A stretch of DNA of 64,000 bases from Mayamaea pseudoterrestris (lineage: Eukaryota): NCBI GenBank assembly GCA_027923505.1, contig BROI01000006.1, forward strand, positions 1,054,001 to 1,118,000, read 5' to 3'. Under the pieces are notes generated by a model. It was not told the origin of the DNA. It saw only the letters and a list, made by a program, of their open reading frames with translations, and did not search any database. Position numbers and translations under genes: made by a program. This document shows positions 2,124 to 63,159 of this stretch, in pieces (position 1 is the stretch's first letter; each line of letters opens with the position of its first letter).

Positions 2124-2166
2124 GCAGTGTATGCTGCATTGAGTGGCGTGAATCAAGTTGCTCAGG

Positions 2167-3824: not shown

Positions 3825-3886
3825 GTATGGCCATTCACTTGTGCATTGCTTTACTTCCATCCTGCCATCAGGAACAGATTGAGATC

Positions 3887-4819: not shown

Positions 4820-5264
4820 GCATTGTATGCTGCATTGGGTGGCGTGAATCAAGTTGCTCAGGTCACAGGGTTGGCGACGGCCTAGGTATATTGGTTTTCC
4901 ACTTGCCTGCATCGACTATCTGTTCTACATGAGCGTTTACCAACTACGATGATTTGATGGATGAAGCGCAAACAGATCAATACAGTGATGTCTCGTTGCA
5001 AAGCATATTGCCTGTGGGCGATGGAAACACATGCTGCACCTTCAAAACAAATATCTAATACTTTTCGCGGTCTTTATAATACTAGCCATTCATGGCATCC
5101 ATTGATTTAGCATTTAGCTTATTGACAAACACATGTATTGTCAACTCCTATTACGAAAACTTGAACGAGCATATGAACTGCTTTCTTCGAGTTGCCAACA
5201 TTAGACTTTGTAACCGAAGTCCCACGCGAAGCTGAATAAAAAACGTGCATTGAAACCGCTGCAA

Positions 5265-7797: not shown

Positions 7798-8061
7798 GAT
7801 GTATAATGCTGTGGTTCAAAAGAGATGGAAGCGCGCAGATTCATCCATGGCCGATTTCGCGTCACAAGTGTATCACGGTACGACGTAAGACTGACGGTGC
7901 GACTTCAAATTTAGCTTATTGACAAACACATGTATTGTCAACTCCTATTACGAAAACTTGAACGAGCATATGAACTGCTTTCTTCGAGTTGCCAACATTA
8001 GACTTTGTAACCGAAGTCCCACGCGAAGCTGAATAAAAAACGTGCATTGAAACCGCTGCAA

Positions 8062-10594: not shown

Positions 10595-10710
10595 GATGTA
10601 TAATGCTGTGGTTCAAAAGAGATGGAAGCGCGCAGATTCATCCATGGCCGATCTCGCGTCACAAGTGTATCACGGTACGACGTGAAACTCACGGTGCGAC
10701 TTCAAACAGT

Positions 10711-11677
10711 GAGCAACCATCGTATTAAAAGACGCCGGCCGATCCTTTTTTGATACCGTTCTGCATCGAGCCGGGCGAGACCCATTCACAATTTGTGTCG
10801 GCTTGGACAATTTTTCACTGTCAATGACGACACGATGCACGGTACTCGTACAAGTACAGTCCAGCAGTCCAGGCCTCGTATGCAGTACTTCAAATAAAGT
10901 TTTTAAGCTTTCAAAGCGTACAATTGATTAAACGCAATAGATCTATCAAGTATGTGAAGCGGCATCTAATGGTGTAATTAGTTTTGTAATACGAGGCGTT
11001 TGGTCCCGCTGCTGCTGCATCATTGGACGAGTTGCATCTGGTCCTTCCCCATCGCAGTTGCAGCCGCTCTTTAATGTGCTAATCTCCTAATTCCTATATT
11101 ATACACTTGCAACTTGCTTCTATACTTCGTATAGGATAGGTATCACATAAAAGATTGACTTGAATCCTTTGTTTAGCGCTTTAGCACGTCGTGCCGATGC
11201 AGGTCAGTGGTCAATAACAGCTGTCGGAACGAACCTCGAACCTTACTGGGAAAATCGAGAGATGCCTGTGCGTTGTAAAGTAATGATGACCGGGATGTGA
11301 GTGTTAAGCATTAATGCATTGTTTTGGCAGTCAACAAACTGCATCAACAAGGCGGTTGACGGTTGACGTCGTGAACCGACCAGCCTCAGCCAAATTTTGG
11401 TGAGATATTGACAGAACCAACTAGTTACGCACCAATTTTAATGCACAGTCAAAGGTTGCTTACCTATGCTGTTGCATTATCAATCACCATCCAGAATTGT
11501 AACAGTTGTAAAGGTTTTGTTTCCCATCGTCAACGATGCAGCTGCCGCAGTTTTGTGGCAACCATCAATCCGACGGTCGGTCCTTCAACGGAAGTTGATT
11601 TGCGTCGGCAGTTTTAAATATGAACGGACAAAATAAGATACTGGCATGGCCGGCGTCTTTTAATACGATGGGTCCTC
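10711..11677. mobile_element. Putative non-autonomous TIR element (MITE-like), ~0.97 kb
   Basis: Perfect 24-bp inverted repeat CCATCGTATTAAAAGACGCCGGCC at 10717-10740 and 11648-11671, extendable to 30 bp with 2 mismatches. No long ORF inside and no clear target-site duplication. Confidence 0.65.
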
Positions 11678-11843
11678 GCCCTATCGGATCTACCGTACCG
11701 GTATGACGAGACGCACGAGGGTATGCATAGTGTATTCAAACCTTGTATCTCGCGTGTGTTAATTTATTTTGTTTATGAAATTATAGTGAGCGTTCATGTG
11801 CAGAGACGCAAGGGACGATTTCAATCGTCGAGTGCCTCGTGGT

Positions 11844-12773
11844 TCAAAAGATCCAATTCAAGTCGGCCGACTGGCTGGGAATGTATTCGACAATAACATG
11901 CGAATAATCCATTTGCGGATAGCATACCAATGATGACGCAGATTGATTCCATTGCTTTTGAGTAGACGACGTAAGTATATACGCGACCGAAATAAGAGCA
12001 AATAGCCAGCCAAGGGCAAGTAAACCAAGCATCAGTCGTCGACCTTTGCGAAAGAAGACTTGCTGGATGCAAAGGTACATATCCAGCCAATTGCGAGGAG
12101 CAGAGTCGAGCCAGACCAAGCACTCATTCATGACTGCTTCAAATTTAGTCGACGCAGAGCATGGTTGTTCTTCGGAAACCAACGATGCGCGACAAAGCTT
12201 GCAAACTCCTCCTCCAAAACCTCCCTCGTTAACCAACGCTTGATGATGCGCACTGCTTGTCCAATCTTTGAGCAAATGCGCCAGCTCATTTTCAACGAAA
12301 GATCCATGCTCGCCATCCTCATGTTCGTCATATACCAGCGAATTCTGAGGATGCGGTGACTCGTGCTTTGCGGCATCCCACCAATGCAGAATCTCATGCA
12401 TCTCCTGCACCGTTCGTTCCGCAAAGGATGCTTGGAGAGAAGAGACTGACACTGCGTGACGAGTCTCATTCGCATCCTTGTGAGTCGTCGTCAGGGGCGT
12501 GAACGTTGATAAATGAACGGCATTGCTTTCTTCCTCTTCCTCGTCAGTGCTAGTATTAATAGCGTAAACAGTAAACGCCTCCACGGAATGCAGGGACACC
12601 AAGTCTTCCAACGTTGCATGAGTCGTGGAGCAAGTTTCATCGCAGTTCGAAATGGATTCACACGAGGATTGCTCAGGTTTCATGTGAATGGATGATGGCA
12701 AGCCATGGTCAGCAGCAGTAGGCGGTGTAGCAGGCTCATTCTTCATCATTTTGCTTTCAACAACAACATCCAT
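11844..12773 (-). CDS. Hypothetical protein with one C-terminal TM helix, copy 1
   Basis: ORF of ~309 aa from ATG 12773; hydrophobic segment LMLGLLALGWLFALISVAYIL; no family recognised. Confidence 0.6.
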   Translation of the reverse strand: MDVVVESKMMKNEPATPPTAADHGLPSSIHMKPEQSSCESISNCDETCSTTHATLEDLVSLHSVEAFTVYAINTSTDEEEEESNAVHLSTFTPLTTTHKDANETRHAVSVSSLQASFAERTVQEMHEILHWWDAAKHESPHPQNSLVYDEHEDGEHGSFVENELAHLLKDWTSSAHHQALVNEGGFGGGVCKLCRASLVSEEQPCSASTKFEAVMNECLVWLDSAPRNWLDMYLCIQQVFFRKGRRLMLGLLALGWLFALISVAYILTSSTQKQWNQSASSLVCYPQMDYSHVIVEYIPSQSADLNWIF

Positions 12774-13949
12774 GCTCGCCACGCTACAAAGCTAATATGA
12801 CAACACAGTCAACACGCTTCCCCTTGACTTGCGCTCCACATCCAATAACGGGTTTGAATCTTTCTGCAAGCGTCCGGCATGACATGCTCCTTCGCAAGTC
12901 GGATTTGTGGACGCTCGCCGACTCGAAAACGACGACGCATGCGTGACAAATGTCGCACCGAGACACATTCAAATTGAGGTGCGACACGTTCATCATCACA
13001 ACATTCGTTCCACCATGGCGCAAGATACGTGTGAGGCAGCGCTGGATCTTGCTTGGAGACAGCTACCGGTAGTTGTAGTCAAGTCGGATGTAGGACGATT
13101 CAAGGATCTACGTCTGCCTTCCTAAAATATAAATAATGGAATCATTTCACCGTCGCACCTTGCACCGTTGGCAATTCTGTAGGATTTCGACGAGAATGGA
13201 TCGCATGATCACATAGCGAGACTGATGAGACTTTCCGGACGTCGGAGCTCACTGTGCATAGCGGTAGCTTATCACTTGCCATCGTACAGGAAATGAGACG
13301 CGCCAAAAGTGGTCAACATTTCAGTGCGTAACGTTTGCTGGCCAGAAACAGGAGCCATTGATGCATTTGAGATTTGACATGTATAGATTTTAAGTTGCTG
13401 CACACATTCTATACGTTTGACGAGCTATCTTTGGCAAGATTGCTGGGAAGGCTGTCCAACATGAGATTTTTTGTCAAGAGGGAGTGACCAATGTTCAAGT
13501 TAATTTATCGGACGATGCCGACCATCTCGCTCAATTTGTGCGACTGCTCAATGCCATTGCTTCGTACGAAGGGACATGTCATTAACAAGAGGAAAGGTCT
13601 CTCGTATGCGATTGATTACTCTAAGCACACAGGAACAATCGACCTAATAATGCGAGAGACAATGAATTTCGGAGAATGCCAATGACCTGCATTGTAAACG
13701 TCGTCATGCAGCGAAGGAACACATCCTCAGTATGCCTCCAGGTCGTCCAGTTTTACTAGCCGACAACGATAACCTGGATTGCATATTTCTTTATTTGCGC
13801 GTGCATCCGCTACTTGCGCTTCGTAAAGTAGGAAGCAGCGGCGGCACAAGGTGGTGTCGGTAAGCGAGGAGTAGTCGATGCGAATTGAGCAGCGTGCTGA
13901 ATTGAGTCACGTACATGGCCGCACGATACACATAAAGTATCATTTAAAT

Positions 13950-15740
13950 CTAGTATTGCGTTTTGGACTCATCGTTTGGATTGTTCCACAGAAGTTGGCC
14001 GAGCAAACGCATTGCCTGGTGCATATCGTCACCTACCGGAAGATCCGCGATCTGCTCCCCCTCATTGTTTGAGACCGCTTCTTTGCTCACCAATGTACCG
14101 TCAGAAGTAGCCAAATTATCATTATCAGCTTGATCCTTTGTCTTTAAATTACTTTCCGTTTCTTTCGCATCCTTTATGCTTTCAACTTGTTTTCGTCGCA
14201 GTGACATGTTACGAAAACGCTCCTTTATCGTTTGCAGTTTGCTCTTTGGCTTTAGCTCGGGATGCAACGTATACTTGACACGCTCCGAGCTCCGTCGCAC
14301 AACATGATTGATCAGCGACCCAAAAATAAACACGTATAAAGTGCATGTCAGACTCAACACGTTGAAGGGCATGCTCATGTCTGGCAGCGGAGGTAGGAAC
14401 AAGACTGAATTCGAATGCAACGCGGCACTAGCGTCGTAGCCACAACGGAGGGTGGACAAGTGAACCACGAGCGGCGGTAGTTCCATTCCTCGATTCGGAT
14501 CGGCTGAAAAACTTTCAAACGGAAGGAAAAGTGGGTCGTAGTCGAAGGAAACAAGCAGTGATGATTGTGCAGGAATCGAGTGGTCGAGTCGCAGTTGGAT
14601 GGAGCCACTGTCCAGCACCTTGATGGAACGATTCTCCAACTCATTCCAAAGTATAGCCCTGCTACTTGTGTTTGGTGCGACACAAGTTTCTCCTACATCA
14701 AGTTCTGGTTGTATTGGATAGGATTGCAACATTTCGACGCGCAGCGACTGCCAAATTGGTTTCAACACTCGTGGAATTGTTTGCGTCAATGCGACAGAGG
14801 CGTCGCAAGTGTCATGCAGATTGTCGACCCTCGCAATCATCATTCCTTTGCTGTATGGTTGTTGCTGATAGCGCATGCTGACGCGCCAAAATGGGTCTGG
14901 CGTTGCCAACACTGGAGCGGCCACAATCGTCTCTGACAGCACGCTGCGGCAGGTGCCAAAGTATTTTGTTGCTTCCTCCGATGCTGTCCCATTCATGTAC
15001 AATACTGTTTCATGCCAGTTGCTATTGATTTCGCTAGTCGGTTTAGATAATGACGATTCAGTTGCAGTCAGCAGCGAAATTTGAGATAGTGCGCACGACG
15101 ATTCAGTCACGCTGTCTGTAGCCTTTGTAGCAACGCTCAATGGGATCAAGTCTTTTAATGCCAAACCATCGAGTGCGCCGGACACTGGTCGCGAATAGTA
15201 AAGCCCATATTTCCATATTCCTTCTGCTACACTCGTTGCTTGTTGATTGCCGCAATGCATGCTTTCATTGTGCATTCTCCACTCCATCCATAGTCCACGT
15301 CCATCATGTTTGCTGCTGCCGCCGCCGCCGCCAGCAGCACTCGCCAGTCGCCCCAGTAGTATCTGCGACCAAACCGTGGCGTTTGGTTGCAGCGTCGTCA
15401 AATATGGAGCGTCGTAGGAGTGGTCAATGTCATACTGCTGCGACAATGTTTGTTCTTTTTGTAACAGCATTTGCAAGCCTTCGGCCGACAGTGGACTCCC
15501 TTGGAATGGTAGCGTCGTGCTGTACTCGACCAGTCTATGAGTAACTTTTGCAGAATTGTTTGCCGCTGCTAATGGCGACGACGACGACGACATCGCTGGT
15601 CTAGTACTATCGTCAACCTGACTTATGTCAACGTGCCGTCGCAGTCCTTGCCCGTGCTGCAGCGATGCGAGTGGAGCAGCGATCCACCGATCCCCCACCA
15701 ATCGCTGGAGAATCTTGTGAAAAGTAGCAAGATCATCATT
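13950..15740 (-). pseudogene. 5'-truncated copy of PIG-T/Gpi16
   Basis: Matches 17940-19730 but lacks the first ~124 codons, which are cut at the duplication junction. Confidence 0.75.
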
Positions 15741-15833
15741 CGCGTGTGTTAATTTATTTTGTTTATGAAATTATAATGAGCGTTCATGTGCAGAGACGCA
15801 AGGGACGATTTCAATCGTCGAGTGCCTCGTGGT

Positions 15834-16763
15834 TCAAAAGATCCAATTCAAGTCGGCCGACTGGCTGGGAATGTATTCGACAATAACATGCGAATAATCC
15901 ATTTGCGGATAGCATACCAATGATGACGCAGATTGATTCCATTGCTTTTGAGTAGACGACGTAAGTATATACGCGACCGAAATAAGAGCAAATAGCCAGC
16001 CAAGGGCAAGTAAACCAAGCATCAGTCGTCGACCTTTGCGAAAGAAGACTTGCTGGATGCAAAGGTACATATCCAGCCAATTGCGAGGAGCAGAGTCGAG
16101 CCAGACCAAGCACTCATTCATGACTGCTTCAAATTTAGTCGACGCAGAGCATGGTTGTTCTTCGGAAACCAACGATGCGCGACAAAGCTTGCAAACTCCT
16201 CCTCCAAAACCTCCCTCGTTAACCAACGCTTGATGATGCGCACTGCTTGTCCAATCTTTGAGCAAATGCGCCAGCTCATTTTCAACGAAAGATCCATGCT
16301 CGCCATCCTCATGTTCGTCATATACCAGCGAATTCTGAGGATGCGGTGACTCGTGCTTTGCGGCATCCCACCAATGCAGAATCTCATGCATCTCCTGCAC
16401 CGTTCGTTCCGCAAAGGATGCTTGGAGAGAAGAGACTGACACTGCGTGACGAGTCTCATTCGCATCCTTGTGAGTCGTCGTCAGGGGCGTGAACGTTGAT
16501 AAATGAACGGCATTGCTTTCTTCCTCTTCCTCGTCAGTGCTAGTATTAATAGCGTAAACAGTAAACGCCTCCACGGAATGCAGGGACACCAAGTCTTCCA
16601 ACGTTGCATGAGTCGTGGAGCAAGTTTCATCGCAGTTCGAAATGGATTCACACGAGGATTGCTCAGGTTTCATGTGAATGGATGATGGCAAGCCATGGTC
16701 AGCAGCAGTAGGCGGTGTAGCAGGCTCATTCTTCATCATTTTGCTTTCAACAACAACATCCAT
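15834..16763 (-). CDS. Hypothetical membrane protein, copy 2
   Basis: Identical translation to 11844-12773. Confidence 0.6.
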   Translation of the reverse strand: MDVVVESKMMKNEPATPPTAADHGLPSSIHMKPEQSSCESISNCDETCSTTHATLEDLVSLHSVEAFTVYAINTSTDEEEEESNAVHLSTFTPLTTTHKDANETRHAVSVSSLQASFAERTVQEMHEILHWWDAAKHESPHPQNSLVYDEHEDGEHGSFVENELAHLLKDWTSSAHHQALVNEGGFGGGVCKLCRASLVSEEQPCSASTKFEAVMNECLVWLDSAPRNWLDMYLCIQQVFFRKGRRLMLGLLALGWLFALISVAYILTSSTQKQWNQSASSLVCYPQMDYSHVIVEYIPSQSADLNWIF

Positions 16764-17939
16764 GCTCGCCACGCTACAAAGCTAATATGACAACACAGTC
16801 AACACGCTTCCCCTTGACTTGCGCTCCACATCCAATAACGGGTTTGAATCTTTCTGCAAGCGTCCGGCATGACATGCTCCTTCGCAAGTCGGATTTGTGG
16901 ACGCTCGCCGACTCGAAAACGACGACGCATGCGTGACAAATGTCGCACCGAGACACATTCAAATTGAGGTGCGACACGTTCATCATCACAACATTCGTTC
17001 CACCATGGCGCAAGATACGTGTGAGGCAGCGCTGGATCTTGCTTGGAGACAGCTACCGGTAGTTGTAGTCAAGTCGGATGTAGGACGATTCAAGGATCTA
17101 CGTCTGCCTTCCTAAAATATAAATAATGGAATCATTTCACCGTCGCACCTTGCACCGTTGGCAATTCTGTAGGATTTCGACGAGAATGGATCGCATGATC
17201 ACATAGCGAGACTGATGAGACTTTCCGGACGTCGGAGCTCACTGTGCATAGCGGTAGCTTATCACTTGCCATCGTACAGGAAATGAGACGCGCCAAAAGT
17301 GGTCAACATTTCAGTGCGTAACGTTTGCTGGCCAGAAACAGGAGCCATTGATGCATTTGAGATTTGACATGTATAGATTTTAAGTTGCTGCACACATTCT
17401 ATACGTTTGACGAGCTATCTTTGGCAAGATTGCTGGGAAGGCTGTCCAACATGAGATTTTTTGTCAAGAGGGAGTGACCAATGTTCAAGTTAATTTATCG
17501 GACGATGCCGACCATCTCGCTCAATTTGTGCGACTGCTCAATGCCATTGCTTCGTACGAAGGGACATGTCATTAACAAGAGGAAAGGTCTCTCGTATGCG
17601 ATTGATTACTCTAAGCACACAGGAACAATCGACCTAATAATGCGAGAGACAATGAATTTCGGAGAATGCCAATGACCTGCATTGTAAACGTCGTCATGCA
17701 GCGAAGGAACACATCCTCAGTATGCCTCCAGGTCGTCCAGTTTTACTAGCCGACAACGATAACCTGGATTGCATATTTCTTTATTTGCGCGTGCATCCGC
17801 TACTTGCGCTTCGTAAAGTAGGAAGCAGCGGCGGCACAAGGTGGTGTCGGTAAGCGAGGAGTAGTCGATGCGAATTGAGCAGCGTGCTGAATTGAGTCAC
17901 GTACATGGCCGCACGATACACATAAAGTATCATTTAAAT

Positions 17940-19974
17940 CTAGTATTGCGTTTTGGACTCATCGTTTGGATTGTTCCACAGAAGTTGGCCGAGCAAACGC
18001 ATTGCCTGGTGCATATCGTCACCTACCGGAAGATCCGCGATCTGCTCCCCCTCATTGTTTGAGACCGCTTCTTTGCTCACCAATGTACCGTCAGAAGTAG
18101 CCAAATTATCATTATCAGCTTGATCCTTTGTCTTTAAATTACTTTCCGTTTCTTTCGCATCCTTTATGCTTTCAACTTGTTTTCGTCGCAGTGACATGTT
18201 ACGAAAACGCTCCTTTATCGTTTGCAGTTTGCTCTTTGGCTTTAGCTCGGGATGCAACGTATACTTGACACGCTCCGAGCTCCGTCGCACAACATGATTG
18301 ATCAGCGACCCAAAAATAAACACGTATAAAGTGCATGTCAGACTCAACACGTTGAAGGGCATGCTCATGTCTGGCAGCGGAGGTAGGAACAAGACTGAAT
18401 TCGAATGCAACGCGGCACTAGCGTCGTAGCCACAACGGAGGGTGGACAAGTGAACCACGAGCGGCGGTAGTTCCATTCCTCGATTCGGATCGGCTGAAAA
18501 ACTTTCAAACGGAAGGAAAAGTGGGTCGTAGTCGAAGGAAACAAGCAGTGATGATTGTGCAGGAATCGAGTGGTCGAGTCGCAGTTGGATGGAGCCACTG
18601 TCCAGCACCTTGATGGAACGATTCTCCAACTCATTCCAAAGTATAGCCCTGCTACTTGTGTTTGGTGCGACACAAGTTTCTCCTACATCAAGTTCTGGTT
18701 GTATTGGATAGGATTGCAACATTTCGACGCGCAGCGACTGCCAAATTGGTTTCAACACTCGTGGAATTGTTTGCGTCAATGCGACAGAGGCGTCGCAAGT
18801 GTCATGCAGATTGTCGACCCTCGCAATCATCATTCCTTTGCTGTATGGTTGTTGCTGATAGCGCATGCTGACGCGCCAAAATGGGTCTGGCGTTGCCAAC
18901 ACTGGAGCGGCCACAATCGTCTCTGACAGCACGCTGCGGCAGGTGCCAAAGTATTTTGTTGCTTCCTCCGATGCTGTCCCATTCATGTACAATACTGTTT
19001 CATGCCAGTTGCTATTGATTTCGCTAGTCGGTTTAGATAATGACGATTCAGTTGCAGTCAGCAGCGAAATTTGAGATAGTGCGCACGACGATTCAGTCAC
19101 GCTGTCTGTAGCCTTTGTAGCAACGCTCAATGGGATCAAGTCTTTTAATGCCAAACCATCGAGTGCGCCGGACACTGGTCGCGAATAGTAAAGCCCATAT
19201 TTCCATATTCCTTCTGCTACACTCGTTGCTTGTTGATTGCCGCAATGCATGCTTTCATTGTGCATTCTCCACTCCATCCATAGTCCACGTCCATCATGTT
19301 TGCTGCTGCCGCCGCCGCCGCCAGCAGCACTCGCCAGTCGCCCCAGTAGTATCTGCGACCAAACCGTGGCGTTTGGTTGCAGCGTCGTCAAATATGGAGC
19401 GTCGTAGGAGTGGTCAATGTCATACTGCTGCGACAATGTTTGTTCTTTTTGTAACAGCATTTGCAAGCCTTCGGCCGACAGTGGACTCCCTTGGAATGGT
19501 AGCGTCGTGCTGTACTCGACCAGTCTATGAGTAACTTTTGCAGAATTGTTTGCCGCTGCTAATGGCGACGACGACGACGACATCGCTGGTCTAGTACTAT
19601 CGTCAACCTGACTTATGTCAACGTGCCGTCGCAGTCCTTGCCCGTGCTGCAGCGATGCGAGTGGAGCAGCGATCCACCGATCCCCCACCAATCGCTGGAG
19701 AATCTTGTAAAAAGTAGCAATATCATCATTGCCATTAGTTTTTAATGGTTGCTTGATGGTAGCAGATACATGAACTCCCGACGGACCGTAAAGGAATGAT
19801 TGTGAATGTGAATGAGAGGATGGAAAATAATCAAAGGAACGTCGATTCACCGAGACGCGTAGGCGAGCCACTCCATACTCGACTAGCCAAGACATTTCAC
19901 TTTGCCTTCGTCTCTCGATTAAAAATGGCAAGTTTCCTGTTAAATGAACATGGTAGTGCACGACGGAGGAAGAG

Positions 19975-34834: not shown

Positions 34835-35229
34835 ACGTCACAAGGCAATAGTACGAAATGAGTGCCAGTGTCAATTACGTCACTAGGCAGTAGTACGAAA
34901 CGAATGCCAGTGAAAACAGCGTCATAAGGCAATAGTATGAAACAAGTGCCAGTGAAAACTGCGTCACAAGGCAATAGTGCGAAACGAGTGCCAGTGAAAA
35001 CTGCGTCATACTTGATTAGTGCGAAACGAGTGCCAATGAATAGTGCGTCTTAAGGCAATAGCGTGAAACGAGTGCCAGTGAAAACTGCGTCACTAAGGCT
35101 ATATTGCGAAACGAGTGCCAGTGAAAACTGCGTCACAAGGCTATATTACGAAACAAGTGCCAGTGTCAATTACGTCACGAGGCTATAATACAAAACGAGT
35201 GCCAGTGTCAATTACGTCACAGGACAATA
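34835..35229. repeat. 42-bp minisatellite, ~9.4 units, upstream of OPLAH (same family as 734-1128)
   Basis: Same consensus unit and orientation, with independently diverged copies. Confidence 0.97.
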
Positions 35230-50955: not shown

Positions 50956-52082
50956 ATGACGAGTGAGTAGATTGTTCTGCGAATGCATGACGAGATGCAC
51001 ATAGAAATAAATGAAGCAAAGATGGCGGATGACGATGGAAAGATGTAGTGCTTGCGTGTATGCACGAGACGGAGACGAGTGACTCGCACCAACGTTCCAA
51101 TATATTCGCTCACTTCTTTCTCCATCAACCTTTACTTTTAGTCAATCTCAAACTCCAAAAGCGCTTGGCCGCATCCGTTTTGAAATGCGGTCGTCGCAAA
51201 ATCTGGTTGGATCCCAATGAAATTAATGACATTGCCTTGGCCAACTCGCGCCGCAACATTACCAAGCTTGCGCGTGACGGCATGATTATTAAAAAGCCAA
51301 ACGTTGTTCACTCGCGGGCTCGCGTGCAACTGCGAAATGAAGCCAAGCGCAAGGGAAGACATACCGGTGAGTTTATAATAGTATTGAGTGAAAGAGTGCA
51401 GGAGCCGCTTGCTGGTTGCGAGAGGAGAATAATTGGAAGATTGCATGGCCCAACATGTCGGAGACTACTGCTTGGCTTCATTCTCCATGTGTCTAGTTTG
51501 TGGGTCTCTTTAGAACTGGGCCGAGAGTATATCGCAACGATTTTTGTCCGCACTTTGAGAAAAGTGTTTGTCATGATTGTTGCAGCCGGCCAGACAACCG
51601 GTGGTCCATTTTCCACGCATTGTGCAGCAGCCAGTCTGCGCAGTGTACTATCTTGTCACGTGACTACAATCGTTCGTTTTTGTCGTGCAACTTATGCTCA
51701 TCATGTGTCATTCTTTCGTTGCATTTCAACAGGAACTGGTAAGCGTCGCGGTACGGCCAATGCTCGTCTACCCTTCAAGGTACTTTGGATGCGTCGCCAG
51801 CGCGTCCTTCGCCGCCTACTCAAAAAGATGAGAGACGCCAAGAAGATTGACAAGCACATTTACCATTCGCTGTATATGCTTGCCAAGGGTAACCAATTCA
51901 AGAATAAGCGCGTCTTGACGGAAACCATTCACGATATGAAGTCAGTCAAGGCCAAGGAAAAGAGCATTCAGGAGCAAGTTGATGCCCGCAAGACGCGCGC
52001 CAAGACTCGTTTGGACCGCAAGGCAGCCAAGGAGGCAAAGAAAATGGCCGATGCCGAGGCGGCGCAAGCAGCGTCATCGTAA
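50956..52082 (+). CDS. RPL19: 60S ribosomal protein eL19; exons 50956-50962, 51142-51366 and 51733-52082
   Basis: [51 protein letters not shown]; canonical GT-AG introns. Confidence 0.96.
51447..51671 (+). ncRNA. Candidate intronic box H/ACA snoRNA(s) in RPL19 intron 2
   Basis: Hairpin 51447-51522, AGAGTA (H box), hairpin 51534-51583, AGACAA (H-like), hairpin 51601-51667, ACA at 51666-51668. Confidence 0.55.
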
Positions 52083-52632
52083 AAAGAGACACACACTCAT
52101 TAGAAATGCGTAGTAAGAGTAAAACAAGTAAACTGATTTATCAACCACCCACTATTGCATGAATATTACATGTTCAATAACAGTTCTGACGAAAATGAAA
52201 ATCTCTTGGTCCGGTACCTGATCCAGTCTTTCTTTGATTAGCGCAAGTCGCTCCAGCGCGTCTCCTTCATTTCGTTATGGGTGCGTGTAATTTGTTGGAT
52301 CTGCTCAAGCTCACCATGACATACATGGTGATGGATACTGAGATCATTGGCCAATCATGACACCAAACATGAATTGGAAAGGATTTCAGGGCTGAGAAGG
52401 CAGCACTGATGATCCCTGTAGCCAAAAAGGGTGCACCGCTGGCACATTCAACCATTGGTTGAAAGTGCAGAAGCTCATGGCAGAGGGATGGGTTCCACAC
52501 TCATGGCGACAAGCCTTTGGGTCCTAATCAAATAAAAACACAATGCGCTTTGTATTCCAGTATTGGCAGGCCATTCTGGCAGTCAGAAGTGCCACTTGAG
52601 ATGCACTGCCAGCAGATCCAACAAGTTGTTAA

Positions 52633-53150
52633 ACTCAGGGCATACAGACGCCCTTAATGATGCCCCATACATGTCTTGGTTACCTTCCAATGGAGCTCCA
52701 GGAGTTGGGTGCGGCTCCAGGGGCATGAGTTTGTTGCCGCAACACAGGAAACTTGTAGCCAGACAGGCACCACTGACATTTCATGGCTTTGAGCACCTTG
52801 GCTGGACTCAGGGCATACAGACGCCTTTAATGATGCCCCAAACATGTCTTGGTTACCTTCCAATGGAGTTCCAGGATTTGGGTGCGGCTCCAGGGGCATG
52901 GGTTTGTTGCCGCAACACAGGAAAATTGTAACCACACAGGCACCACTGACATTTCATCACTTTCAGCACTCTGGCTGGACTCAGGGCATACAGACGCCTT
53001 TAATGATGCCCCATACATGTCTTGGTTACCTTCCAATGGAGTTCCAGGATTTGGGTGCGGCTCCAGGGGCATGGGTTTGTTGCCGCAACACAGGAAAATT
53101 GTAACCAGACAGGCACCACTGACATAACATCACTTTGAGCACCTTGGCTG
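52633..53150 (+). repeat. Satellite family B, 3 x 173 bp
   Basis: ACTCAGGGCATACAGACGCC at 52633, 52806 and 52979. Confidence 0.97.
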
Positions 53151-53154
53151 ATCA

Positions 53155-56100
53155 CAGAAACTCATATTGAAGCTGTCTGGCCCGTGGCTATGGCTATTGA
53201 GTGTGTATGAATTTGAGTAACTGCAACCATTGCTGAACCCAACCCCGGTCATTTTACCGGAGGGTTTATAGTTATAAAATTGAATGGACTGCACATCCTA
53301 CATCCAGAATCCATGCCTAGCAACCGCAAAAACTCATATTAAAGCTAACTGGCCCATGGCTATGGCTATTGAGTGAGTAGCTGAAACCCATGCTGAACCC
53401 AACCCCGGTCATTTTCCTGGAGGGTTTGTAGGTATAAAGTTGAATGGATTGCACATACTTTATCCTTTAAGCATGCCTAGCAACCGCAGAGACTCATATT
53501 GAAGCCGGCTGGCCCATGGCTATGGCTATTGAGTGTGCTTGAGTAGCTGAAACCCATGCTGCCTGCCAGCCACCACCAAACCCACACCCAACCCCAGTCA
53601 TTTCTCTGGAGGGTTTGAAGGTATACCATTGAATGGATTGCACATCCTACATCCTTAATCCATGCCTAGCAACCGCAGAAACTTATATTGAAGCTGGCTG
53701 GCCCATGGCTATGGCTATGAGTGTGTTTGTTTTTGAGTAACTGCAACCATTGCTGAACCCAACCCCGGTCATTTTACTGGAGGGTTTGTGGGTATAAATT
53801 TGAATGGATTGCACATCCTACATCCTTAAGCAATGCCTAGCAACCGCCAAGACTCATATTGAAGCTAACTGGCCCGTGGCTATGGCTATTGATTGTGTTT
53901 ACATTTGAGTAGCTGAAACCCATGCTGAACCCAACCCCGGTCATTTTCCTGGAGGGTTTGTAGGTATAAATTTGAATGGATTGCACATCCTTTATCCTTT
54001 AAGCATGCCTAGCAACCGCAGAGACTCATATTGAAGCTGGGTGGCCCATGGCTATGGCTAATGAGTGTGCTTGAGTAGCTGAAACCCATGCTGCCTGCCA
54101 GCCACCACCAAACCCACACCCAACCCCAGTCATTTCTCTGGAGGGTTTGAAGGTATACCATTGTATGGATTGCACATCCTACATCCTTAATCCATGCCTA
54201 GCAACCGTTAAGACTTATATTATTGCTGGCTGGCCCTTGGCTATGGCTATGAGTGTGTTTGTTTTTGAGTAGCTGAAACCATTGCTGAACCCAACCCCGG
54301 TCATTTTACTGGAGGGTCCTTGGGTACAAATTTGAATGGATTGCACATCCTACATCCTTATGCAATGCGTAGCAACCGCCAAGACTCATATTGAAGCTAA
54401 CTGGCCCATGGCTATGGCTATTGAGTGTGTTTTTATTTGAGTAGCTGAAACCCATGCTGAACCCAACCCCAGTCATTTGCCTGGAGGGTTTGTGGGTATA
54501 AATTTGAATGGATTGCACATCCTACATCCTTAAGCAATGCCTAGCAACCGCCAAGACTCATATTGAAGCTAACTGGCCCGTGGCTATGGCTATTGAGTGT
54601 GCAGAAACTCATATTGAAGCTGTCTGGCCCGTGGCTATGGCTATTGAGTGTGTATGAATTTGAGTAACTGCAACCATTGCTGAACCCAACCCCGGTCATT
54701 TTACCGGAGGGTTTATAGTTATAAAATTGAATGGACTGCACATCCTACATCCAGAATCCATGCCTAGCAACCGCAAAAACTCATATTAAAGCTAACTGGC
54801 CCATGGCTATGGCTATTGAGTGAGTAGCTGAAACCCATGCTGAACCCAACCCCGGTCATTTTCCTGGAGGGTTTGTAGGTATAAAGTTGAATGGATTGCA
54901 CATACTTTATCCTTTAAGCATGCCTAGCAACCGCAGAGACTCATATTGAAGCCGGCTGGCCCATGGCTATGGCTATTGAGTGTGCTTGAGTAGCTGAAAC
55001 CCATGCTGCCTGCCAGCCACCACCAAACCCACACCCAACCCCAGTCATTTCTCTGGAGGGTTTGAAGGTATACCATTGAATGGATTGCACATCCTACATC
55101 CTTAATCCATGCCTAGCAACCGCAGAAACTTATATTGAAGCTGGCTGGCCCATGGCTATGGCTATGAGTGTGTTTGTTTTTGAGTAACTGCAACCATTGC
55201 TGAACCCAACCCCGGTCATTTTACTGGAGGGTTTGTGGGTATAAATTTGAATGGATTGCACATCCTACATCCTTAAGCAATGCCTAGCAACCGCCAAGAC
55301 TCATATTGAAGCTAACTGGCCCATGTCGCTGTCTCTTGAGATTGTGTTTACATTTGAGTAGCTGAAACCCATGCTGAACCCAACCCCGGTCATTTTCCTG
55401 GAGGGTTTGTAGGTATAAATTTGAATGGATTGCACATCCTTTATCCTTTAAGCATGCCTAGCAACCGCAGAGACTCATATTGAAGCTGGGTGGCCCATGG
55501 CTATGGCTAATGAGTGTGCTTGAGTAGCTGAAACCCATGCTGCCTGCCAGCCACCACCAAACCCACACCCAACCCCAGTCATTTCTCTGGAGGGTTTGAA
55601 GGTATACCATTGTATGGATTGCACATCCTACATCCTTAATCCATGCCTAGCAACCGTTAAGACTTATATTATTGCTGGCTGGCCCTTGGCTATGGCTATG
55701 AGTGTGTTTGTTTTTGAGTAGCTGAAACCATTGCTGAACCCAACCCCGGTCATTTTACTGGAGGGTCCTTGGGTACAAATTTGAATGGATTGCACATCCT
55801 ACATCCTTATGCAATGCGTAGCAACCGCCAAGACTCATATTGAAGCTAACTGGCCCATGGCTATGGCTATTGAGTGTGTTTTTATTTGAGTAGCTGAAAC
55901 CCATGCTGAACCCAACCCCAGTCATTTGCCTGGAGGGTTTGTGGGTATAAATTTGAATGGATTGCACATCCTACATCCTTAAGCAATGCCTAGCAACCGC
56001 CAAGACTCATATTGAAGCTAACTGGCCCGTGGCTATGGCTATTGAGTGTGTTTATATTTGAAAAGCTGAAACCCATGCTGAACCCAACCCCGGTCATTTT

Positions 56101-59100
56101 CCTGGAGGGTTTGTAGGTATAAATTTGAATGGATTGCACATCCTTTATCCTTTAAGCATGCCTAGCAACCGCAGAGACTCATATTGAAGCTGGCTGGCCC
56201 ATGGCTATGGCTATTGAGTGTGTTTGTTTTGAGTAGCTGAAACCCATGCTGCCTGCCAGCCACCACCAAACCCACACCCAACCCCAGTCATTTCTCTGGA
56301 GGGTTTGAAGGTATACCATTGAATGCATTGCACATCCTACATCCTTAATCCATGCCTAGCAACCGCAGAGACTTATATTATTGCTGGTTGTCCCGTGGCT
56401 ATGGCTATTGAGTGTGTTTGGTTTGCTGCAACCATTGCTGAACCCAACCCCGGTCATTTAACTGGATGGTTTGTGGGTATAAATTTAAATGGATTGCACG
56501 TTTCTTATCCTTTAAGCATGCCTAGCAACCGTAAAGACACATATTGAAGCTGACTGGCCCGTGGCTATGGCTATGAATGTGTTTGTTTTTGACTAGCTGA
56601 AACCCATGCTGCCTGCCAGCCACCACCAAACCCACACCCAACCCCAGTCATTTCTCTGGAGGGTTTGAAGGTATACCATTGAATGGATTGCACATCCTAC
56701 ATCCTTTATTCATGCCTAGCAACCGCCGAGACACATATTGAAGCTGACTGGCCCGTGGCTATGGCTATTGAGTGTGTTTGTTTTTGAGTAGCTGAATCCA
56801 TTGCTGAACCTAACCCCGGTCATTTTACTGGAGGGTTTGTGGGTATAAATTTGAATGGATTGCACATCCTTTATCCTTTAAGCATGCCTTGCAACCGCCC
56901 CGCAGAGACTCATATTGAAGCTGGGTTGCCCATGGCTATGGCTAATGAGTGTGCTTGAGTAGCTAAAACCCATGCTGCCTGCCAGCCACCACCATACCCA
57001 CACCCAACCCCAGTCATTTCTCTGGAGGCTTTGAAGGTATAACATTGAATGGATTGCACATCCTATATCCTTAATCCATGCCTAGCAACCGCAGAAACGT
57101 ATATTGAAGCTGGCTGGCCCGTGGCTATGGCTATTGAGTGTGTTTATTTTTGAGTAGCTGCAACCCATGCTGAACCCAACCCCAGTCACTTTACTGGAGG
57201 GTCCGTGGGTACAAATTTGAATGGATTGCACGTCCAACATCCTTAAGCATGCCTAGCAACCGCAGAGACTCATATTGAAGCTGGGTGGCCCATGGCTATG
57301 GCTAATGAGTGTGCTTGAGTAGCTGAAACCCATGCTGCCTGCCAGCCACCACCAAACCCACACCCAACCCCAGTCATTTCTCTGGAGGGTTTGAAGGTAT
57401 ACCATTGTATGGATTGCACATCCTACATCCTTAATCCATGCCTAGCAACCGCAGAGACTCATATTATTGCTGGCTGGCCCATGGCTATGGCTATGAGTGT
57501 GTTTGTTTTTGAGTAACTGAATCCATTGCTGAACCCAACCCCGGTCATTTTACTGACCCAACCCCAGTCATTTCTCTGGAGGGTTTGAAGGTATACCATT
57601 GTATGGATTGCACATCCTACATCCTTAATCCATGCCTAGCAACCGCAGAGACTTATATTATTGCTGGCTGGCCCATGGCTATGGCTATGAGTGTGTTTGT
57701 TTTTGAGTAACTGAATCCATTGCTGAACCCAACCCCGGTCATTTTACTGGAGGGTTTGTGGGTATAAATTTGAATGGATTGCACATCCTACATCCTTAAG
57801 CAATGCCTAGCAACCGCCAAGACTCATATTGAAGCTAACTGGCCCGTGGCTATGGCTATTGAGTGTGTTTATATTTGAGTAGCTGAAACCCATGCTGAAC
57901 CCAACCCCGGTCATTTTCCTGGAGGGTTTGTAGGTATAAATTTGAATGGATTGCACATCCTTTATCCTTTAAGCATGCCTAGCAACCGCAGAGACTCATA
58001 TTGAAGCTGGGTGGCCCATGGCTATGGCTATTGAGTGTGCTTGAGTAGCTGAAACCCATGCTGCCTGCCAGCCACCACCAAACCCACACCCAACCCCAGT
58101 CATTTCTCTGGAGGGTTTGAAGGTATACCATTGAATGGATTCCACATCCTACATCCATAATCCATGCCTAGCAACCGCAGAGACACATATTGAAGCTGGC
58201 TGGCCCGTGGCTATGGCTATTGAGTGTGTTTGTTTTTGAGTAGCTGAATCCATTGCTGAACCCAACCCCGGTCATTTTACTGGAGGGTTTGTGGGTATAA
58301 ATTTGAATGGATTGCACATCCTACATCCTTAAGCAATGCCTAGCAACCGCCAAGACTCATATTGAAGCTAACTGGCCCATGGCTATGGCTATTGAGTGTG
58401 TTTGTTTTTGAGTAGCTGAAACCCATGCTGAACCCAACCCCGGTCATTTTCCTGGAGGGTTTGTAGGTATAAATTTGAATGGATTGCACATCCTTTATCC
58501 TTTAAGCATGCCTTGCAACCGCCCCGCTGAGACTCATATTGAAGCTGAGTGGCCCATGGCTATGGCTATTGAGTGTGTTTGTTTTGAGTAGCTGAAACCC
58601 ATGCTGAACCCAACCACCACCAAACCCACACCCAACCCCGGTTCATTTAACTAAAGGGTTTGTGGGTATAAAATTAAATAGATTGCACATCCTACATCCA
58701 TAATCCATGCCTAGCAACCGCAGAAACTTATATTGAAGCTGGCTGGCCCGTGGCTATGGCTATTGAGTGTGTTTGTTTTTGAGTAGCTGCAACCATTGCT
58801 GAACCCAACCCCGGTCATTTAACTGGAGGGTTTGTGGGTATAAATTTGAATGGATTGCACATCCTATATCCTTAAGCAATGCCTAGCAACCGCCAAGACT
58901 CATATTGAAGCTAACTGGCCCGTGGCTATGGCTATTGAGTGTGTTTATATTTGAAAAGCTGAAACCCATGCTGAACCCAACCCCGGTCATTTTCCTGGAG
59001 GGTTTGTAGGTATAAATTTGAATGGATTGCACGTCCTTTATCCTTTAAGCATGCCTAGCAACCGCAGAGACTCATATTGAAGCTGGGTGGCCCATGGCTA

Positions 59101-60640
59101 TGGCTATTGAGTGTGCTTGAGTAGCTGAAACCCATGCTGCCTGCCAGCCACCACCAAACCCACACCCAACCCCAGTCATTTCTCTGGAGGGTTTGAAGGT
59201 ATACCATTGAATGGATTGCACATCCTACATCCTTAATCCATGCCTAGCAACCGCAGAAACTTATATTGAAGCTGGCTGGCCCATGGCTATGGCTATGAGT
59301 GTGTTTGTTTTTGAGTAACTGCAACCATTGCTGAACCCAACCCCAGTCACTTTACTGGAGGGTCCGTGGGTACAAATTTGAATGGATTGCACGTCCAACA
59401 TCCTTAAGCAATGCGTAGCAACCGCCAAGACTCATATTGAAGCTAACTGGCCCATGGCTATGGCTATTGATTGTGTTTACATTTGAGTAGCTGAAACCCA
59501 TGCTGTACCCAACCGCAGTCACTTTACTGGAGGGTTTGTAGGTATAAATTTGAATGGATTGCACATCCTTTATCCTTTAAGCATGCCTAGCAACCGCAGA
59601 GACTCATATTGAAGCTGGCTGGCCCATGGCTATGGCTATTGAGTGTGCTTGAGTAGCTGAAACCCATGCTGCCTGCCAGCCACCACCAAACCCACACCCA
59701 ACCCCAGTCATTTCTCTGGAGGGTTTGAAGGTATACCATTGAATGCATTGCACATCCTTTATCCTTTAAGCATGCCTAGCAACCGCGGAGACTTATATTG
59801 AAGCTGGCTGGCCCATGGCTATGGCTATGAGTGTGTTTGTTTTTGAGTAACTGAATCCATTGCTGAACCCAACCTGGGTCACTTTACTGGAGGGTTTGTG
59901 GGTATAAATTGGAATGGATTGCACTTCCAAAATCCTTAAGCAATGCCTAGTAACCGCCAAGACTCATATTGAAGCTAACTGGCCCAGGGCTATGGCTATT
60001 GAGTGTGTTTATATTTGAGTAGCTGAAACCCATGCTGAACCCAACCCCGGTCATTTGCCTGGAGGGTTTATAGGTATAATTTTGAACGGATTGCACATCC
60101 TTTATCCTTTAAGCATGCCTTGCGACCGCAGAGACTCATATTGAAGCTGGCTGGCCCATAACTATGGCTATTGAGTGTGCTTGAGTAGCTGAAACCCATG
60201 CTGCCTGCCAGCCACCACCAAACCCACACCCAACCCCAGTCATTTCTCTGGAGGGTTTGAAGGTATACCATTGAATGCATTGCACATCCTACATCCTTAA
60301 TCCATGCCTAGCCACCGCGGAGACTTATATTGAAGCTGGCTGGCCCATGGCTATGGCTATGAGTGTGTTTGTTTTTGAGTAGCTGAAACCCTTGCTGTAC
60401 CCAACCCCGGTCACTTTCCTAGAGGGTTTGTAGGTATTGCACATCCTACATCCTAAAGCAATGCCTAGCAACCGCCAAGACTCATATTGAAGCTAACTGG
60501 CCCGTGGCTACGGCTATGAGTTTGTTTGTTTTTGAGTAGCTGAAACCCATGCTGAACCCGACCCCGGTCATTTTCCTGGAGGGTTTGTAGGTATAAATTT
60601 GAATGGATTGCACATCCTGCATCTTTAATCCATGCCTAGC
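53155..60640. repeat. Satellite family A, ~42 monomers of 171/172/189 bp in a ~532-bp trimeric higher-order repeat
   Basis: CAACCG anchors at 53481, 53670, 53841, 54013, 54202, 54373 and again at 57811, 57983, 58172, 58344. Confidence 0.98.
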
Positions 60641-60642
60641 GG

Positions 60643-60827
60643 CCCTGGAGCCGCACCCAAATCCTTGAGCTCCATTGGAAGGTACCAAAACATGTATGGG
60701 GCATCATTAAAGGCGTCTGGATGCCCTGAGACCAGCCAAGGTGCTCAAAGTCATGATTTGTCAGTGGTGCCGGTCTGGTTACGATTTTCCTGTGTTGCAG
60801 CAACAAACGCATGCCCCTGGAGCCGCA
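60643..60827 (-). repeat. Satellite family B, ~1.05 unit, inverted
   Basis: Reverse complement of the 173-bp unit, circularly permuted, with scattered substitutions. Confidence 0.93.
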
Positions 60828-61161
60828 GACTGCAATGTTACTGGTGAGAAGTTCTCACCAGTCTCAGCCCGCAGATGCCTTGACATGCAACTACTCATAA
60901 AATATGCCGTGTATACACCCAAATCACACCAGAATGGTATCAACATCATTATTAAGTCTGCGCTACAAGATAATATGCCTGGCTGTTGTCTCAGCAGACT
61001 GCAATGTGACTGGTGTGAATGTCTCACCAGCCTCAGCCCGCAGATGCCTTGACATTCAAATATGTCCCTACATCAAGCCATGTATGTGCCCAAAGTACAC
61101 AAGGGTGCCAAAAGATTATACGCCTGGGTGGTGTCTCAGTAGACTGCAATGCGACTGGTGA
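60826..61161. repeat. Satellite family C, ~2 diverged units (169 and 145 bp)
   Basis: AGACTGCAATG..ACTGGTG at ~60827, 60996 and 61141; CTCAGCCCGCAGATGCCTTGACAT occurs twice. Confidence 0.85.
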
Positions 61162-61263
61162 AAACTGAGCAGAACTGCCTTTGAATGGAAATAATGTGAA
61201 TGAGCAGCAACGTGAGGAAGGGAGAGAATGGGTGGTAATATTGAATTAATTTTAATGTTGCCA

Positions 61264-63159
61264 TCATGTCATTAATTTGCTCTTTCGTCGTGCCAAAGCT
61301 TCCTCTGCTCGTTTCCGTAGGATCTCCATCTTTTCGGCCTTGCGTCGCGCGTCAGCATTTAACGCAGCAGCCTCGGCTTCGGACTCTTGCGCTGCTGCTG
61401 CTACGTCCATCGCAGCCACATCCGAAACGCGAGCTACTTTATCATTTAACGGCACATGGCCCACCACCACCACATCTTCCTCTTCGTAGACCACCTCGTC
61501 ATCAAACATGTTTACCAAACCATACCGTCGATCCGGCACCGTTCGTAGTTTTCCAACTGTGAATGAGTCGCCTATAATTACTTCCAAATTATTGAGTGGA
61601 TCTTGAAACTCATCTCGTCGCCACTCCTTTCCATCAATCAAGTCTTGTCGATTTCGAAGGGTACTATCATCCAGTTTGATGCCCTTGGTTGCCATTTGCT
61701 TCAGTATTGAGTCGGATCGTTTAATCAACGCCAGTCCAACCGTGTTGCGGTCTCCCGTTCCACCAGGCTCGGCCATGGATGTAATGGCACCAACGCTAAT
61801 TTCTTGGTTGCTTCCTAGTACATACAACACATCACCAGCTTGCGGAAGCCGCGTCAAGTTTTCCATGGGATCGTCTGCGCCAGACTCGTATTCGTAAACG
61901 TTAAAGTCATCGTCGAAAACGACTTGATACAGTGAGCGAGGCGGACCACGAGGATTTTTGAGAATGGATGCAACGCCTTCCTGGCCCAAGTAGCAACCCT
62001 TCTCTTGGTCGACGAATGATTCAAGATGTAGCTCAAGTGGAGACGCTGGAGTAATGCTGGACTTTTGGGATGCGCTGGTAGCAAGTTCGTCGGCATTGGC
62101 ATTGCCCTTTGCCGACTTGCGCTTGCTGGTTGCCGCATGCCCTGTCATTTCGAATCCAAAGGCTGGCAATCCCGATTCGACTTGCAGTGTTTGATACTCC
62201 AAAGCTCCTACTTCAATCGGACCTAGTGCATTGTCTTCCGACACGAGATTTTGCCATATTTGCTGTCCCATGGATGCCGCCTGGTCCAAGAAGCAAAAGG
62301 TGAAACCGCGTCCGACGCAGTCTGACAGCAGCGTGGTCGGAGCAATGAGCAGAGAGGAACGAGCCGTCGGGTCAGTATCGCTATCAGACCTAGTCACTTG
62401 TGCATATGTACATTGATTGTTGTTTGGAAGTGCCAGCTCCTGGCGAATGTACGGCTGAATAAACTTGTCAAAAGCTGCAGCGACATTGTCGCGACGGGTC
62501 GATGCCAGTGTAAATATGCAGGCATGTTTTATGGTCGAAAGCTCCACCTGGTCCAAGGAAAATACAAATGGATCCAATCGATTCCACAAGGCCTTTGCGG
62601 AATGACCTGGACTCGTCATCAAGTATGCATTTTCAGGCGACGATACGCAAACATTGAAGCGATCAACTACATGCCCTCGATTTGTGAGCAAACAAGCTTG
62701 TCGAAATGAGCCGAGTTGCTTGCTCGATTTATTCTCGACTGCTATCGTATTCTTGGTGAATGACTTTGTCAATTTTGAATGTAGAAAGTCTAGCGTTCCG
62801 GAACCTGCCACTCGCACCAAGCCAAACTCGATTGGCGTTTTCTGCAGCATGTAGCCAATGCATCGGGAGGATTTCAAGGCGCTCCGAACGGCTTCTCCCT
62901 TGAGTCCGGCTGGTGTATTTGGAGGATAGGAACTTGGTAATGATGGTTTTGATGAGATAGCAGGCGCTTGTCCGCGTCGAGGCGGAACGTAGTCGTACTC
63001 ATTGACGGAGGATGAATGGAGGCATGTTCTTGATGAATGCCAATCGCTTCGCCGTTGAGAAAGTTGTCTTTCATTTCGCCATTGGTGCGTCCAGCAAACA
63101 CTTAATTCTACTAAGGACAGCAGAGAAAGTAAAGCAATCGTCTCCCGTAGGCTCTTCAT
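61264..63159 (-). CDS. YgfZ/IBA57/GcvT-family folate-binding Fe-S maturation protein, probably plastid-targeted
   Basis: KGCYLGQE signature, VAGSGTLDFLHSKLT, ACLLTNRG, ESGLPAFG; signal-like MKSLRETIALLSLLSLVELSVCW. Confidence 0.9.
   Translation of the reverse strand: MKSLRETIALLSLLSLVELSVCWTHQWRNERQLSQRRSDWHSSRTCLHSSSVNEYDYVPPRRGQAPAISSKPSLPSSYPPNTPAGLKGEAVRSALKSSRCIGYMLQKTPIEFGLVRVAGSGTLDFLHSKLTKSFTKNTIAVENKSSKQLGSFRQACLLTNRGHVVDRFNVCVSSPENAYLMTSPGHSAKALWNRLDPFVFSLDQVELSTIKHACIFTLASTRRDNVAAAFDKFIQPYIRQELALPNNNQCTYAQVTRSDSDTDPTARSSLLIAPTTLLSDCVGRGFTFCFLDQAASMGQQIWQNLVSEDNALGPIEVGALEYQTLQVESGLPAFGFEMTGHAATSKRKSAKGNANADELATSASQKSSITPASPLELHLESFVDQEKGCYLGQEGVASILKNPRGPPRSLYQVVFDDDFNVYEYESGADDPMENLTRLPQAGDVLYVLGSNQEISVGAITSMAEPGGTGDRNTVGLALIKRSDSILKQMATKGIKLDDSTLRNRQDLIDGKEWRRDEFQDPLNNLEVIIGDSFTVGKLRTVPDRRYGLVNMFDDEVVYEEEDVVVVGHVPLNDKVARVSDVAAMDVAAAAQESEAEAAALNADARRKAEKMEILRKRAEEALARRKSKLMT

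Follow-up and report, generated by a model that had tools for sequence, protein, structure and literature searches.

A satellite array with a three-monomer higher-order repeat in a CpG-depleted repeat island of the diatom Mayamaea pseudoterrestris

What kind of element is a 7.5-kb block of nucleosome-sized tandem repeats found between two genes of a compact diatom genome, and could it be a centromere? The question is raised by a locus of Mayamaea pseudoterrestris (assembly GCA_027923505.1) that lies in the window, i.e. the 64,000 nucleotides analysed here (contig BROI01000006.1, positions 1,054,001 to 1,118,000, forward strand). Coordinates are given from the first letter of the window. The block is probably one array of a multi-locus satellite family with a unit of about 172 bp. 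It lies at the centre of a mosaic, 9 kb long, in which four unrelated repeat families are combined and which would be methylated and heterochromatin-like. A centromere is a far less probable answer. The structure of the array is described below, then the island that surrounds it, the abundance of the four families and the rival explanations.

The array and its higher-order repeat

The elements on which the description rests are the following.
53158..60642, forward strand: the satellite array proper, composed of about 42.9 monomers; these belong to three types (A, 172 bp; B, 189 bp; D, 171 bp) and form a 532-bp higher-order repeat.
53155..56051 (53155-54602 and 54603-56051), forward strand: block of 1447-1449 bp present twice in tandem in nearly identical form; the two copies share an exact run of 721 bp at lag 1447.

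Overlapping arrays with periods of 172 and 360 were reported by Tandem Repeats Finder over 53160-60640. A 14-base anchor word, with up to two mismatches allowed, was matched 41 times between 53313 and 60461; all matches are on the forward strand and none on the reverse strand. At the same tolerance the word was found nowhere else in the 64-kb window, and a BLAST search with the trimer as query gave no match in the window beyond the array. The spacing from anchor to anchor is exactly 171 (eight cases), 172 (twelve) or 189 bp (nine) in 29 of 40 intervals. The other eleven intervals are of 157, 160 (two), 166, 174, 194 (four), 199 and 223 bp.

Monomer types were defined by average-linkage clustering of the aligned monomers (n = 40) at a distance of 10%. 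Three types take up 37 of the 40 monomers: 13 are of type A (172 bp), 13 of type B (189 bp) and 11 of type D (171 bp). Each of the other three stands alone. Type B carries a C/A-rich insertion. The order of the monomers along the array is ABDABDAEABDABDAABFBABDBBDABDACDABDABDABD. Monomers of one type are 92.5-95.5% identical, those of different types about 86%. Mean identity reaches 90.2% for monomers three places apart, but 86.1% for direct neighbours and 86.8% at a lag of two. When the array is compared with itself without gaps, the best match is found at a lag of 532, and the complete B-D-A trimers (n = 8) have a mean pairwise identity of 94.6%. The array is thus a genuine, though shallow, higher-order repeat of three monomers (532 bp).

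No open reading frame (ORF) of at least 80 amino acids is present between 53104 and 60753. In the array region, a search of Rfam at E≤1 gave no match and ARAGORN found no tRNA. The array has the properties by which satellites are recognised: its units are head-to-tail, in one orientation and in a fixed monomer order; it is non-coding; and it belongs to a multi-locus family. Its GC content is 46.6%, against 48.8% for the window, with minima of 44% over 500 bp and 36% over 100 bp.

These results agree closely with a first-pass annotation made from the sequence of the window. It had placed a gene-free array of 7.5 kb at 53155..60640, coordinates that are correct to within 3 bases. Its monomers of 171, 172 and 189 bp, said to recur as a trimer of about 532-533 bp, are recovered by the clustering and by the self-match at lag 532. 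Three features go beyond that annotation: the array is flanked on both sides by 173-bp repeats in inverted orientation, it contains a near-exact duplication of 1447 bp, and it is depleted in CpG.

The internal duplication begins at the left edge of the array and generates the aberrant 223-bp monomer. Monomers 1-3 are identical to monomers 9-11, and monomers 5-7 to monomers 13-15. In a global alignment, the two 1447-bp copies differ solely at one cluster of eight positions inside the block. This sole divergence is located at 55330-55350 (monomer 12), where the eight differences fall within 17 bases; it resembles what a local error in sequencing or polishing, or a short tract of conversion, would leave. 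The duplicate may be the latest event of unequal exchange in the array.

The CpG-depleted island and its genomic setting

The array is not isolated. A repeat island of about 9 kb occupies the whole gap between the 3′ ends of the gene RPL19 and of a YgfZ-like gene and contains, from left to right, a spacer, an element H, three copies of a repeat F, the satellite, an inverted copy of F (F′) and a repeat G.
52289..61263, no strand: CpG-depleted domain, a repeat island that was probably methylated in the past; the only such domain in the 64-kb window.
52289..52627, no strand: family H, a 339-bp element resembling a miniature inverted-repeat transposable element (MITE), with 17-bp terminal inverted repeats (arms 52289-52305 and 52611-52627, 94% complementary).
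52633..53157, forward strand: family F, 3.03 copies of a 173-bp tandem repeat (Tandem Repeats Finder period 173, 94% matches; copies 93-100% alike).
60643..60827, reverse strand: family F′, the reverse complement of F, present as 1.07 units of 173 bp (144-nt inverted pairs, 90-91% complementarity).
60825..61160, forward strand: family G, about 2.1 copies of a third tandem repeat (direct repeats, spaced by 145-169 bp here).

F and F′ were aligned by BLAST over 186 nt at 90.9-91.4% identity. As F′ is inverted relative to F, the array sits between inverted F repeats. An extension of this inverted symmetry past F was considered and rejected: the local score of the outer flanks is 23, for a shuffle mean of 19.5 and a shuffle maximum of 25. 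A common origin of the satellite, F and G was likewise rejected, no alignment between them being clearly above shuffles (best z 3.8, for a local score of 25 points). The arms of H have an exact 14-base core in common, which has no further occurrence in the window. A clear target-site duplication was not visible around H.

The island is set apart from its surroundings by its content in CpG. When the 64 kb were scanned with a sliding window of 500 bp, all 35 positions with an observed/expected ratio of CpG (CpG o/e) below 0.6 were found to start between 52251 and 60751. One step beyond the island, on both sides, the ratio has recovered to 1.0-1.3; the edges, at 52289 and at about 61200, are sharp. 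The array has a ratio of 0.26, as does F, and F′ plus G one of 0.38; the rest of the window has 1.11, the coding sequence of the YgfZ-like gene 1.09 and another intergenic stretch 1.20. The island is 3- to 6-fold depleted in CpG, and TpG/CpA are in excess.

Only one unit per family was scored further, because tandem copies are not independent. CpG o/e of one unit each:
H: 0.16.
F: 0.27.
Satellite trimer: 0.24.
F′: 0.45.
G: 0.33.
Spacer next to RPL19: 1.08.

Among random segments of the same length drawn from the rest of the window (n = 5000), none is as low as H, F, the trimer or G, and a fraction of 0.0004 is as low as F′. Within the satellite monomer, eight CG positions were counted, one of them near-fixed; five polymorphic columns are exchanges between CG and TG or between CG and CA. 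Four unrelated families share the deficit, and its edges are those of the repeats. This is what would be expected from long-term CpG methylation followed by deamination, and we infer that the depletion is the footprint of such methylation. In diatoms, methylation is reported to be confined to islands of repeats and transposable elements that are co-marked by H3K9me and H3K27me3 (PMC9998398).

The island is bordered by two genes and a short spacer.
51060..52082, forward strand: RPL19 (ribosomal protein L19e), from the ORF list; Pfam Ribosomal_L19e N-terminal and C-terminal domains, E 9e-24 and 2.3e-28.
52083..52288 (206 bp), forward strand: non-repeat spacer, probably the 3′ untranslated region of RPL19; not CpG-depleted (CpG o/e 1.08).
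61264..63159, reverse strand: YgfZ-like folate-binding gene (GCV_T domain; Pfam GCV_T 27.5 bits, cut-off 25.6).

The ORF of RPL19 runs through an intron, and the last base of its stop codon is 52082. The product of the YgfZ-like gene is 99% identical to an NCBI protein from Mayamaea pseudoterrestris. Both the convergent arrangement of the two genes and the diatom host, which the first-pass annotation had called probable, are hence borne out, the former by the strands of the ORFs and by the Pfam domains, the latter by this flanking protein. A 100-bp segment with at most 32% GC starts at 52101 (52101-52200), directly after the stop codon of RPL19 and at the edge of the island; it is far shorter than the 500 bp of the low-GC rule for Phaeodactylum tricornutum centromeres.

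The genome of M. pseudoterrestris is reported to have 30.6 Mb in 41 contigs (PMC9724779). It is described there as diploid with a heterozygosity of 2.97%; the published assembly was obtained by merging two assemblies, the Nanopore reads had an N50 of 8.6 kb, and repeats, mainly Ty1-copia, make up 19% of the genome (PMC9724779). In the text of that paper as available, the words "centromere", "satellite" and "telomere" have no occurrence; its supplementary table of repeat classes may list satellites. The word "satellite" is also absent from a second paper (PMC12159174), in which the assembly is named as GCA_027923505.1. No telomere repeat was found within the 64-kb window; over this length, then, the island does not lie at the end of a chromosome.

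Other repeats are present in the window. Three arrays of a 42-bp tandem repeat are located at 734-1128, 3430-3824 and 34836-35229 (9.4 copies each, 82-87% matches); two of the three are inside a duplicated block of 2696 bp. Blocks bearing genes are tandemly duplicated at 1-4822, 5112-9427 and 11787-19708, with periods of 2696, 2797 and 3990 bp respectively. The exact runs are of 2126, 1519 and 3932 bp, and the duplicate ORFs are of 330, 802 and 309 amino acids. Either genes were duplicated here very recently, or the three duplications are artefacts that arose when assemblies of a heterozygous diploid were merged.

Abundance of the families and the explanations weighed

Logan contigs from four public runs (at least three coded organisms, two studies) were placed on 52000-61800. 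In run X1, 9713 contigs were placed on this 9.8-kb stretch: 1361 at 99% identity or more, 2481 at 95-99%, 3628 at 90-95% and 2243 below 90%. These variants are far too many for one array of 7.5 kb, which indicates that the family is multi-locus. In a contig of 2779 bp, whose depth is that of single-copy sequence, the first 157 bases are satellite (about 89% identity) and other sequence follows; since it leaves the satellite, this contig carries a junction at another locus. Run X6, from another coded organism, contains 328 contigs of the family, of which 36 are at 99% or more. Depths were as follows; summed values give orders of magnitude only.
Single-copy contig depth at the ends of the stretch: X1, 82-103; X2, 7.5-8.4; X3, 29-39.
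Summed depth relative to single copy (fold): array of the satellite, 30-214 on average over its length in three runs; F, 16-218; H, 400-1540; G, 4000-11000.

Expressed as sequence length, the satellite would amount to roughly 0.2-1.5 Mb equivalents. The summed depth of G is by far the highest on the stretch and is 50-135 times the mean of the array; the 172-bp array is therefore not the most abundant tandem repeat of the genome. The joints of contigs within G go back by 155, 156 or 311 bases, which implies that G is tandem elsewhere in the genome with a period of 155-156 bp. All four families (satellite, F, G and H) are genome-wide and high-copy in independent contig sets. Matches in metagenomes were also examined and discarded: a 20-base word of the monomer gave none, and a 19-letter word gave 27 loci with a single match each and at most 29 aligned bases, as expected by chance.

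Taken together, these data favour one array of a multi-locus satellite family within a silent repeat island. Unequal exchange and gene conversion in the register of a multimer are the usual origin of higher-order repeats. The structure of identities suggests that the array would grow and be homogenised in this way, in the register of the 532-bp trimer. Its composition, considered together with what is described in other diatoms, suggests for the island a long history of CpG methylation and of packaging into silent chromatin; deamination of 5-methylcytosine would have eroded its CpGs. The island could persist between two convergent 3′ ends because such a gap tolerates insertions, and no cellular function would be required for it. 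It might nevertheless act as a silent spacer or, conceivably, as a centromere.

Several points weigh against this explanation. The methylation is deduced from composition, and the scoring of one unit each covers four independent families. Summed contig depth is not copy number; the 0.2-1.5 Mb equivalents are therefore rough, and they differ 7-fold between runs. The 1.45-kb duplicate could be an assembly artefact instead of a recent exchange, because the window has other 100%-identical tandem duplications of several kilobases. The family may have a specific chromosomal role, centromeric or otherwise. A periodicity of WW dinucleotides of about 10 bp is no stronger than in shuffles in six of the six units tested (fractions 0.32-0.84), and the trimer folds with no more dyad symmetry than its shuffles (z +0.91; 78 of 100 shuffles at least as good). 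The island had at first also been proposed to be nucleosome-phased heterochromatin. The heterochromatin part of that proposal is supported by a CpG depletion confined to the island; the phasing is not, since without WW periodicity or excess dyad symmetry the length of the unit is all that is left to suggest it.

The reliability of the assembly bears directly on the length of the array. It is unlikely, yet conceivable, that the satellite is real while its length, the order of its monomers and the 1.45-kb duplicate come from the Nanopore assembly or from the merging of haplotypes. The N50 of the reads (8.6 kb) is close to the length of the array and two assemblies of a diploid with 2.97% heterozygosity were merged (PMC9724779); the 100%-identical tandem duplicates of gene-bearing blocks, with their long exact runs, lie in the same window; and none of the placed Logan contigs spans the array. 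The second copy of the duplicate is almost without assigned depth (0-386 in X1). Contigs that fit both copies may have been placed on the first; the part with little or no cover, 54616-55596, lies in the second copy. Such an origin is at odds with the presence of the monomers in contigs derived from short reads in four runs (1361 contigs at 99% or more in X1), with the recurrence of the three monomer types and of their order throughout the array and not just in the duplicate, and with the junctions of the array with F and F′, which are single and clean.

A mobile origin was also considered, in which the three copies of F, the satellite and F′ together would be an element of foldback type or with terminal inverted repeats (TIR), whose internal tandem repeats were expanded and whose transposition spread the family. 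The array lies exactly between inverted copies of one 173-bp repeat (144-186 nt, 90-91%), a MITE-like element (H) is adjacent, and the ratio of satellite to F bases is about 11-30 in the runs, against 10.5 at the locus, the depths being of the same order relative to length. Foldback elements are documented as a source of satellites (PMC4079207). The ends of the block, however, do not behave as those of such an element: they are out of phase, the left F starting from position 1 of the unit and the right F′, read inward, near position 76; no target-site duplication is visible at 52633 and 60827; and the outer flanks have no inverted similarity above the shuffle range given above. No transposase or other ORF is present in the block. 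With this mismatch of the F/F′ termini and no target-site duplication, the block is unlike a clean TIR transposon, and a foldback origin similar to that of the transposon Tetris is a weaker rival because its termini do not match; we regard it as quite improbable.

The remaining possibility is the one with which the locus was approached. In this case, M. pseudoterrestris would have satellite-based centromeres, unlike its relatives Phaeodactylum and Fistulifera, and on the 1.24-Mb contig considered here this part would be played by the 9-kb island; very little probability is given to this. Nor is more given to the detailed form of a regional centromere of the satellite type, in which nucleosomes with CENH3 would be carried by the 172-bp array, one such array would be found per chromosome, and the inverted F and outer repeats would be pericentric. 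The unit is of the size of a nucleosome, the array has a higher-order repeat, and a core between inverted repeats resembles centromeres of the fission-yeast type. The 0.2-1.5 Mb equivalents would permit one such array on each of a few dozen chromosomes in a 30.6-Mb genome. The window offers no low-GC alternative: 100-bp segments with at most 32% GC are two in number (30501 and 52101), neither of them in the array.

Against this, repeats come within about 100-200 bp of the stop codons of two genes, the array is just 7.5 kb long, and a footprint of heavy CpG methylation is typical of ordinary silenced repeats. The satellite of a centromere is commonly the most abundant tandem repeat of its genome. 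The 172-bp array does not follow this heuristic, as G has 50-135 times its summed depth and the array is not dominant. The island is gene-free and intergenic, as P. tricornutum centromeres mostly are (10.1101/096016). These experimentally defined centromeres (chromatin immunoprecipitation and episome assays) are nevertheless reported to need less than 33% GC over at least 500 bp and to be without repeats (10.1101/096016). The array, with 46.6% GC and with no stretch of 500 bp below 44% or of 100 bp below 36%, has neither the low GC nor the absence of repeats. The predicted, partly episome-tested centromeres of Fistulifera solaris are described as having 36-42% GC and no highly repeated elements (10.1101/2021.11.10.468027). 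No satellite-based diatom centromere was found in the literature searched. A centromere is on balance unlikely; the computed features (GC content, repeats and the depth of G) lean against it. Should centromeres or chromosome ends be marked by a satellite in this genome, G would be the first family to map.

Comparison with known systems

Diatom genomes are usually described as satellite-poor, and their known centromeres as short, AT-rich and non-repetitive. Against this background, the locus shows that a compact diatom genome of 30.6 Mb can hold at least three unrelated families of tandem repeats, whose units measure 155-189 bp, and that one of these families has a clear higher-order structure. 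As an element the array is well formed but of an ordinary kind; what is unusual is its host lineage, in which such satellites were not found described in the literature searched; the supplementary repeat table of the genome paper may list some. CpG erosion would provide a way, from sequence only, to find methylated or heterochromatic islands in diatom assemblies. M. pseudoterrestris could thus be a species of interest for satellite biology, as regards the length of repeat units, DNMT5-type methylation and a possible turnover of centromeres. If the satellite, or the far commoner 155-bp family G, proved to be centromeric, the picture of diatom centromeres and the design of artificial chromosomes would change. 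If this array were itself a centromere, it would be the first repeat-based one of a diatom and would imply a switch of centromere type within one diatom order.

Primate alpha satellite has monomers of nucleosome size, of distinct types in a fixed order, that form higher-order repeats of multimers. The array resembles it by its monomers of 171-189 bp, by their fixed order and by multimers that are more alike (94.6%) than neighbouring monomers (86%). It differs in that its types diverge by only about 14%, in its length (7.5 kb and not hundreds of kilobases) and in its position between active-looking genes.

The centromeres of P. tricornutum and F. solaris are, like the array, intergenic, a few kilobases long and located in compact genomes of pennate diatoms; they are non-repetitive with less than 33% GC (P. 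tricornutum) or 36-42% GC (F. solaris), whereas the array has 46.6% GC and is made of repeats. The foldback transposon Tetris of Drosophila virilis (PMC4079207) shares with the locus an association of tandem repeats with inverted repeats and illustrates a route from mobile element to satellite. Unlike in Tetris, the inverted flanks found here have non-matching termini, no target-site duplication and no sign of mobility.

Closer likenesses are found in euchromatic satellites and in silenced islands. Families of tandem repeats of about 170 bp are reported in the euchromatin of Tribolium castaneum (PMC4675708), and scattered satellites in Crassostrea gigas (PMC8268682). As in these two animals, the arrays are short, their unit is typical of satellites, their surroundings are rich in genes, the families are multi-locus and they are associated with mobile elements; the differences are the diatom host, its 30.6-Mb genome and the stacking of several unrelated families in one CpG-depleted island. 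The CG-methylated islands of repeats and transposable elements of diatoms (PMC9998398) are similar in being sharply bounded blocks of repeats within gene-dense DNA of normal CpG content. They consist mainly of transposable elements, whereas the present island is made of satellites and one MITE-like element, and its probable methylation is read from the CpG footprint. The insect families of about 170 bp, the oyster satellites and the methylated repeat islands of diatoms thus appear to be the closest analogues of this locus.

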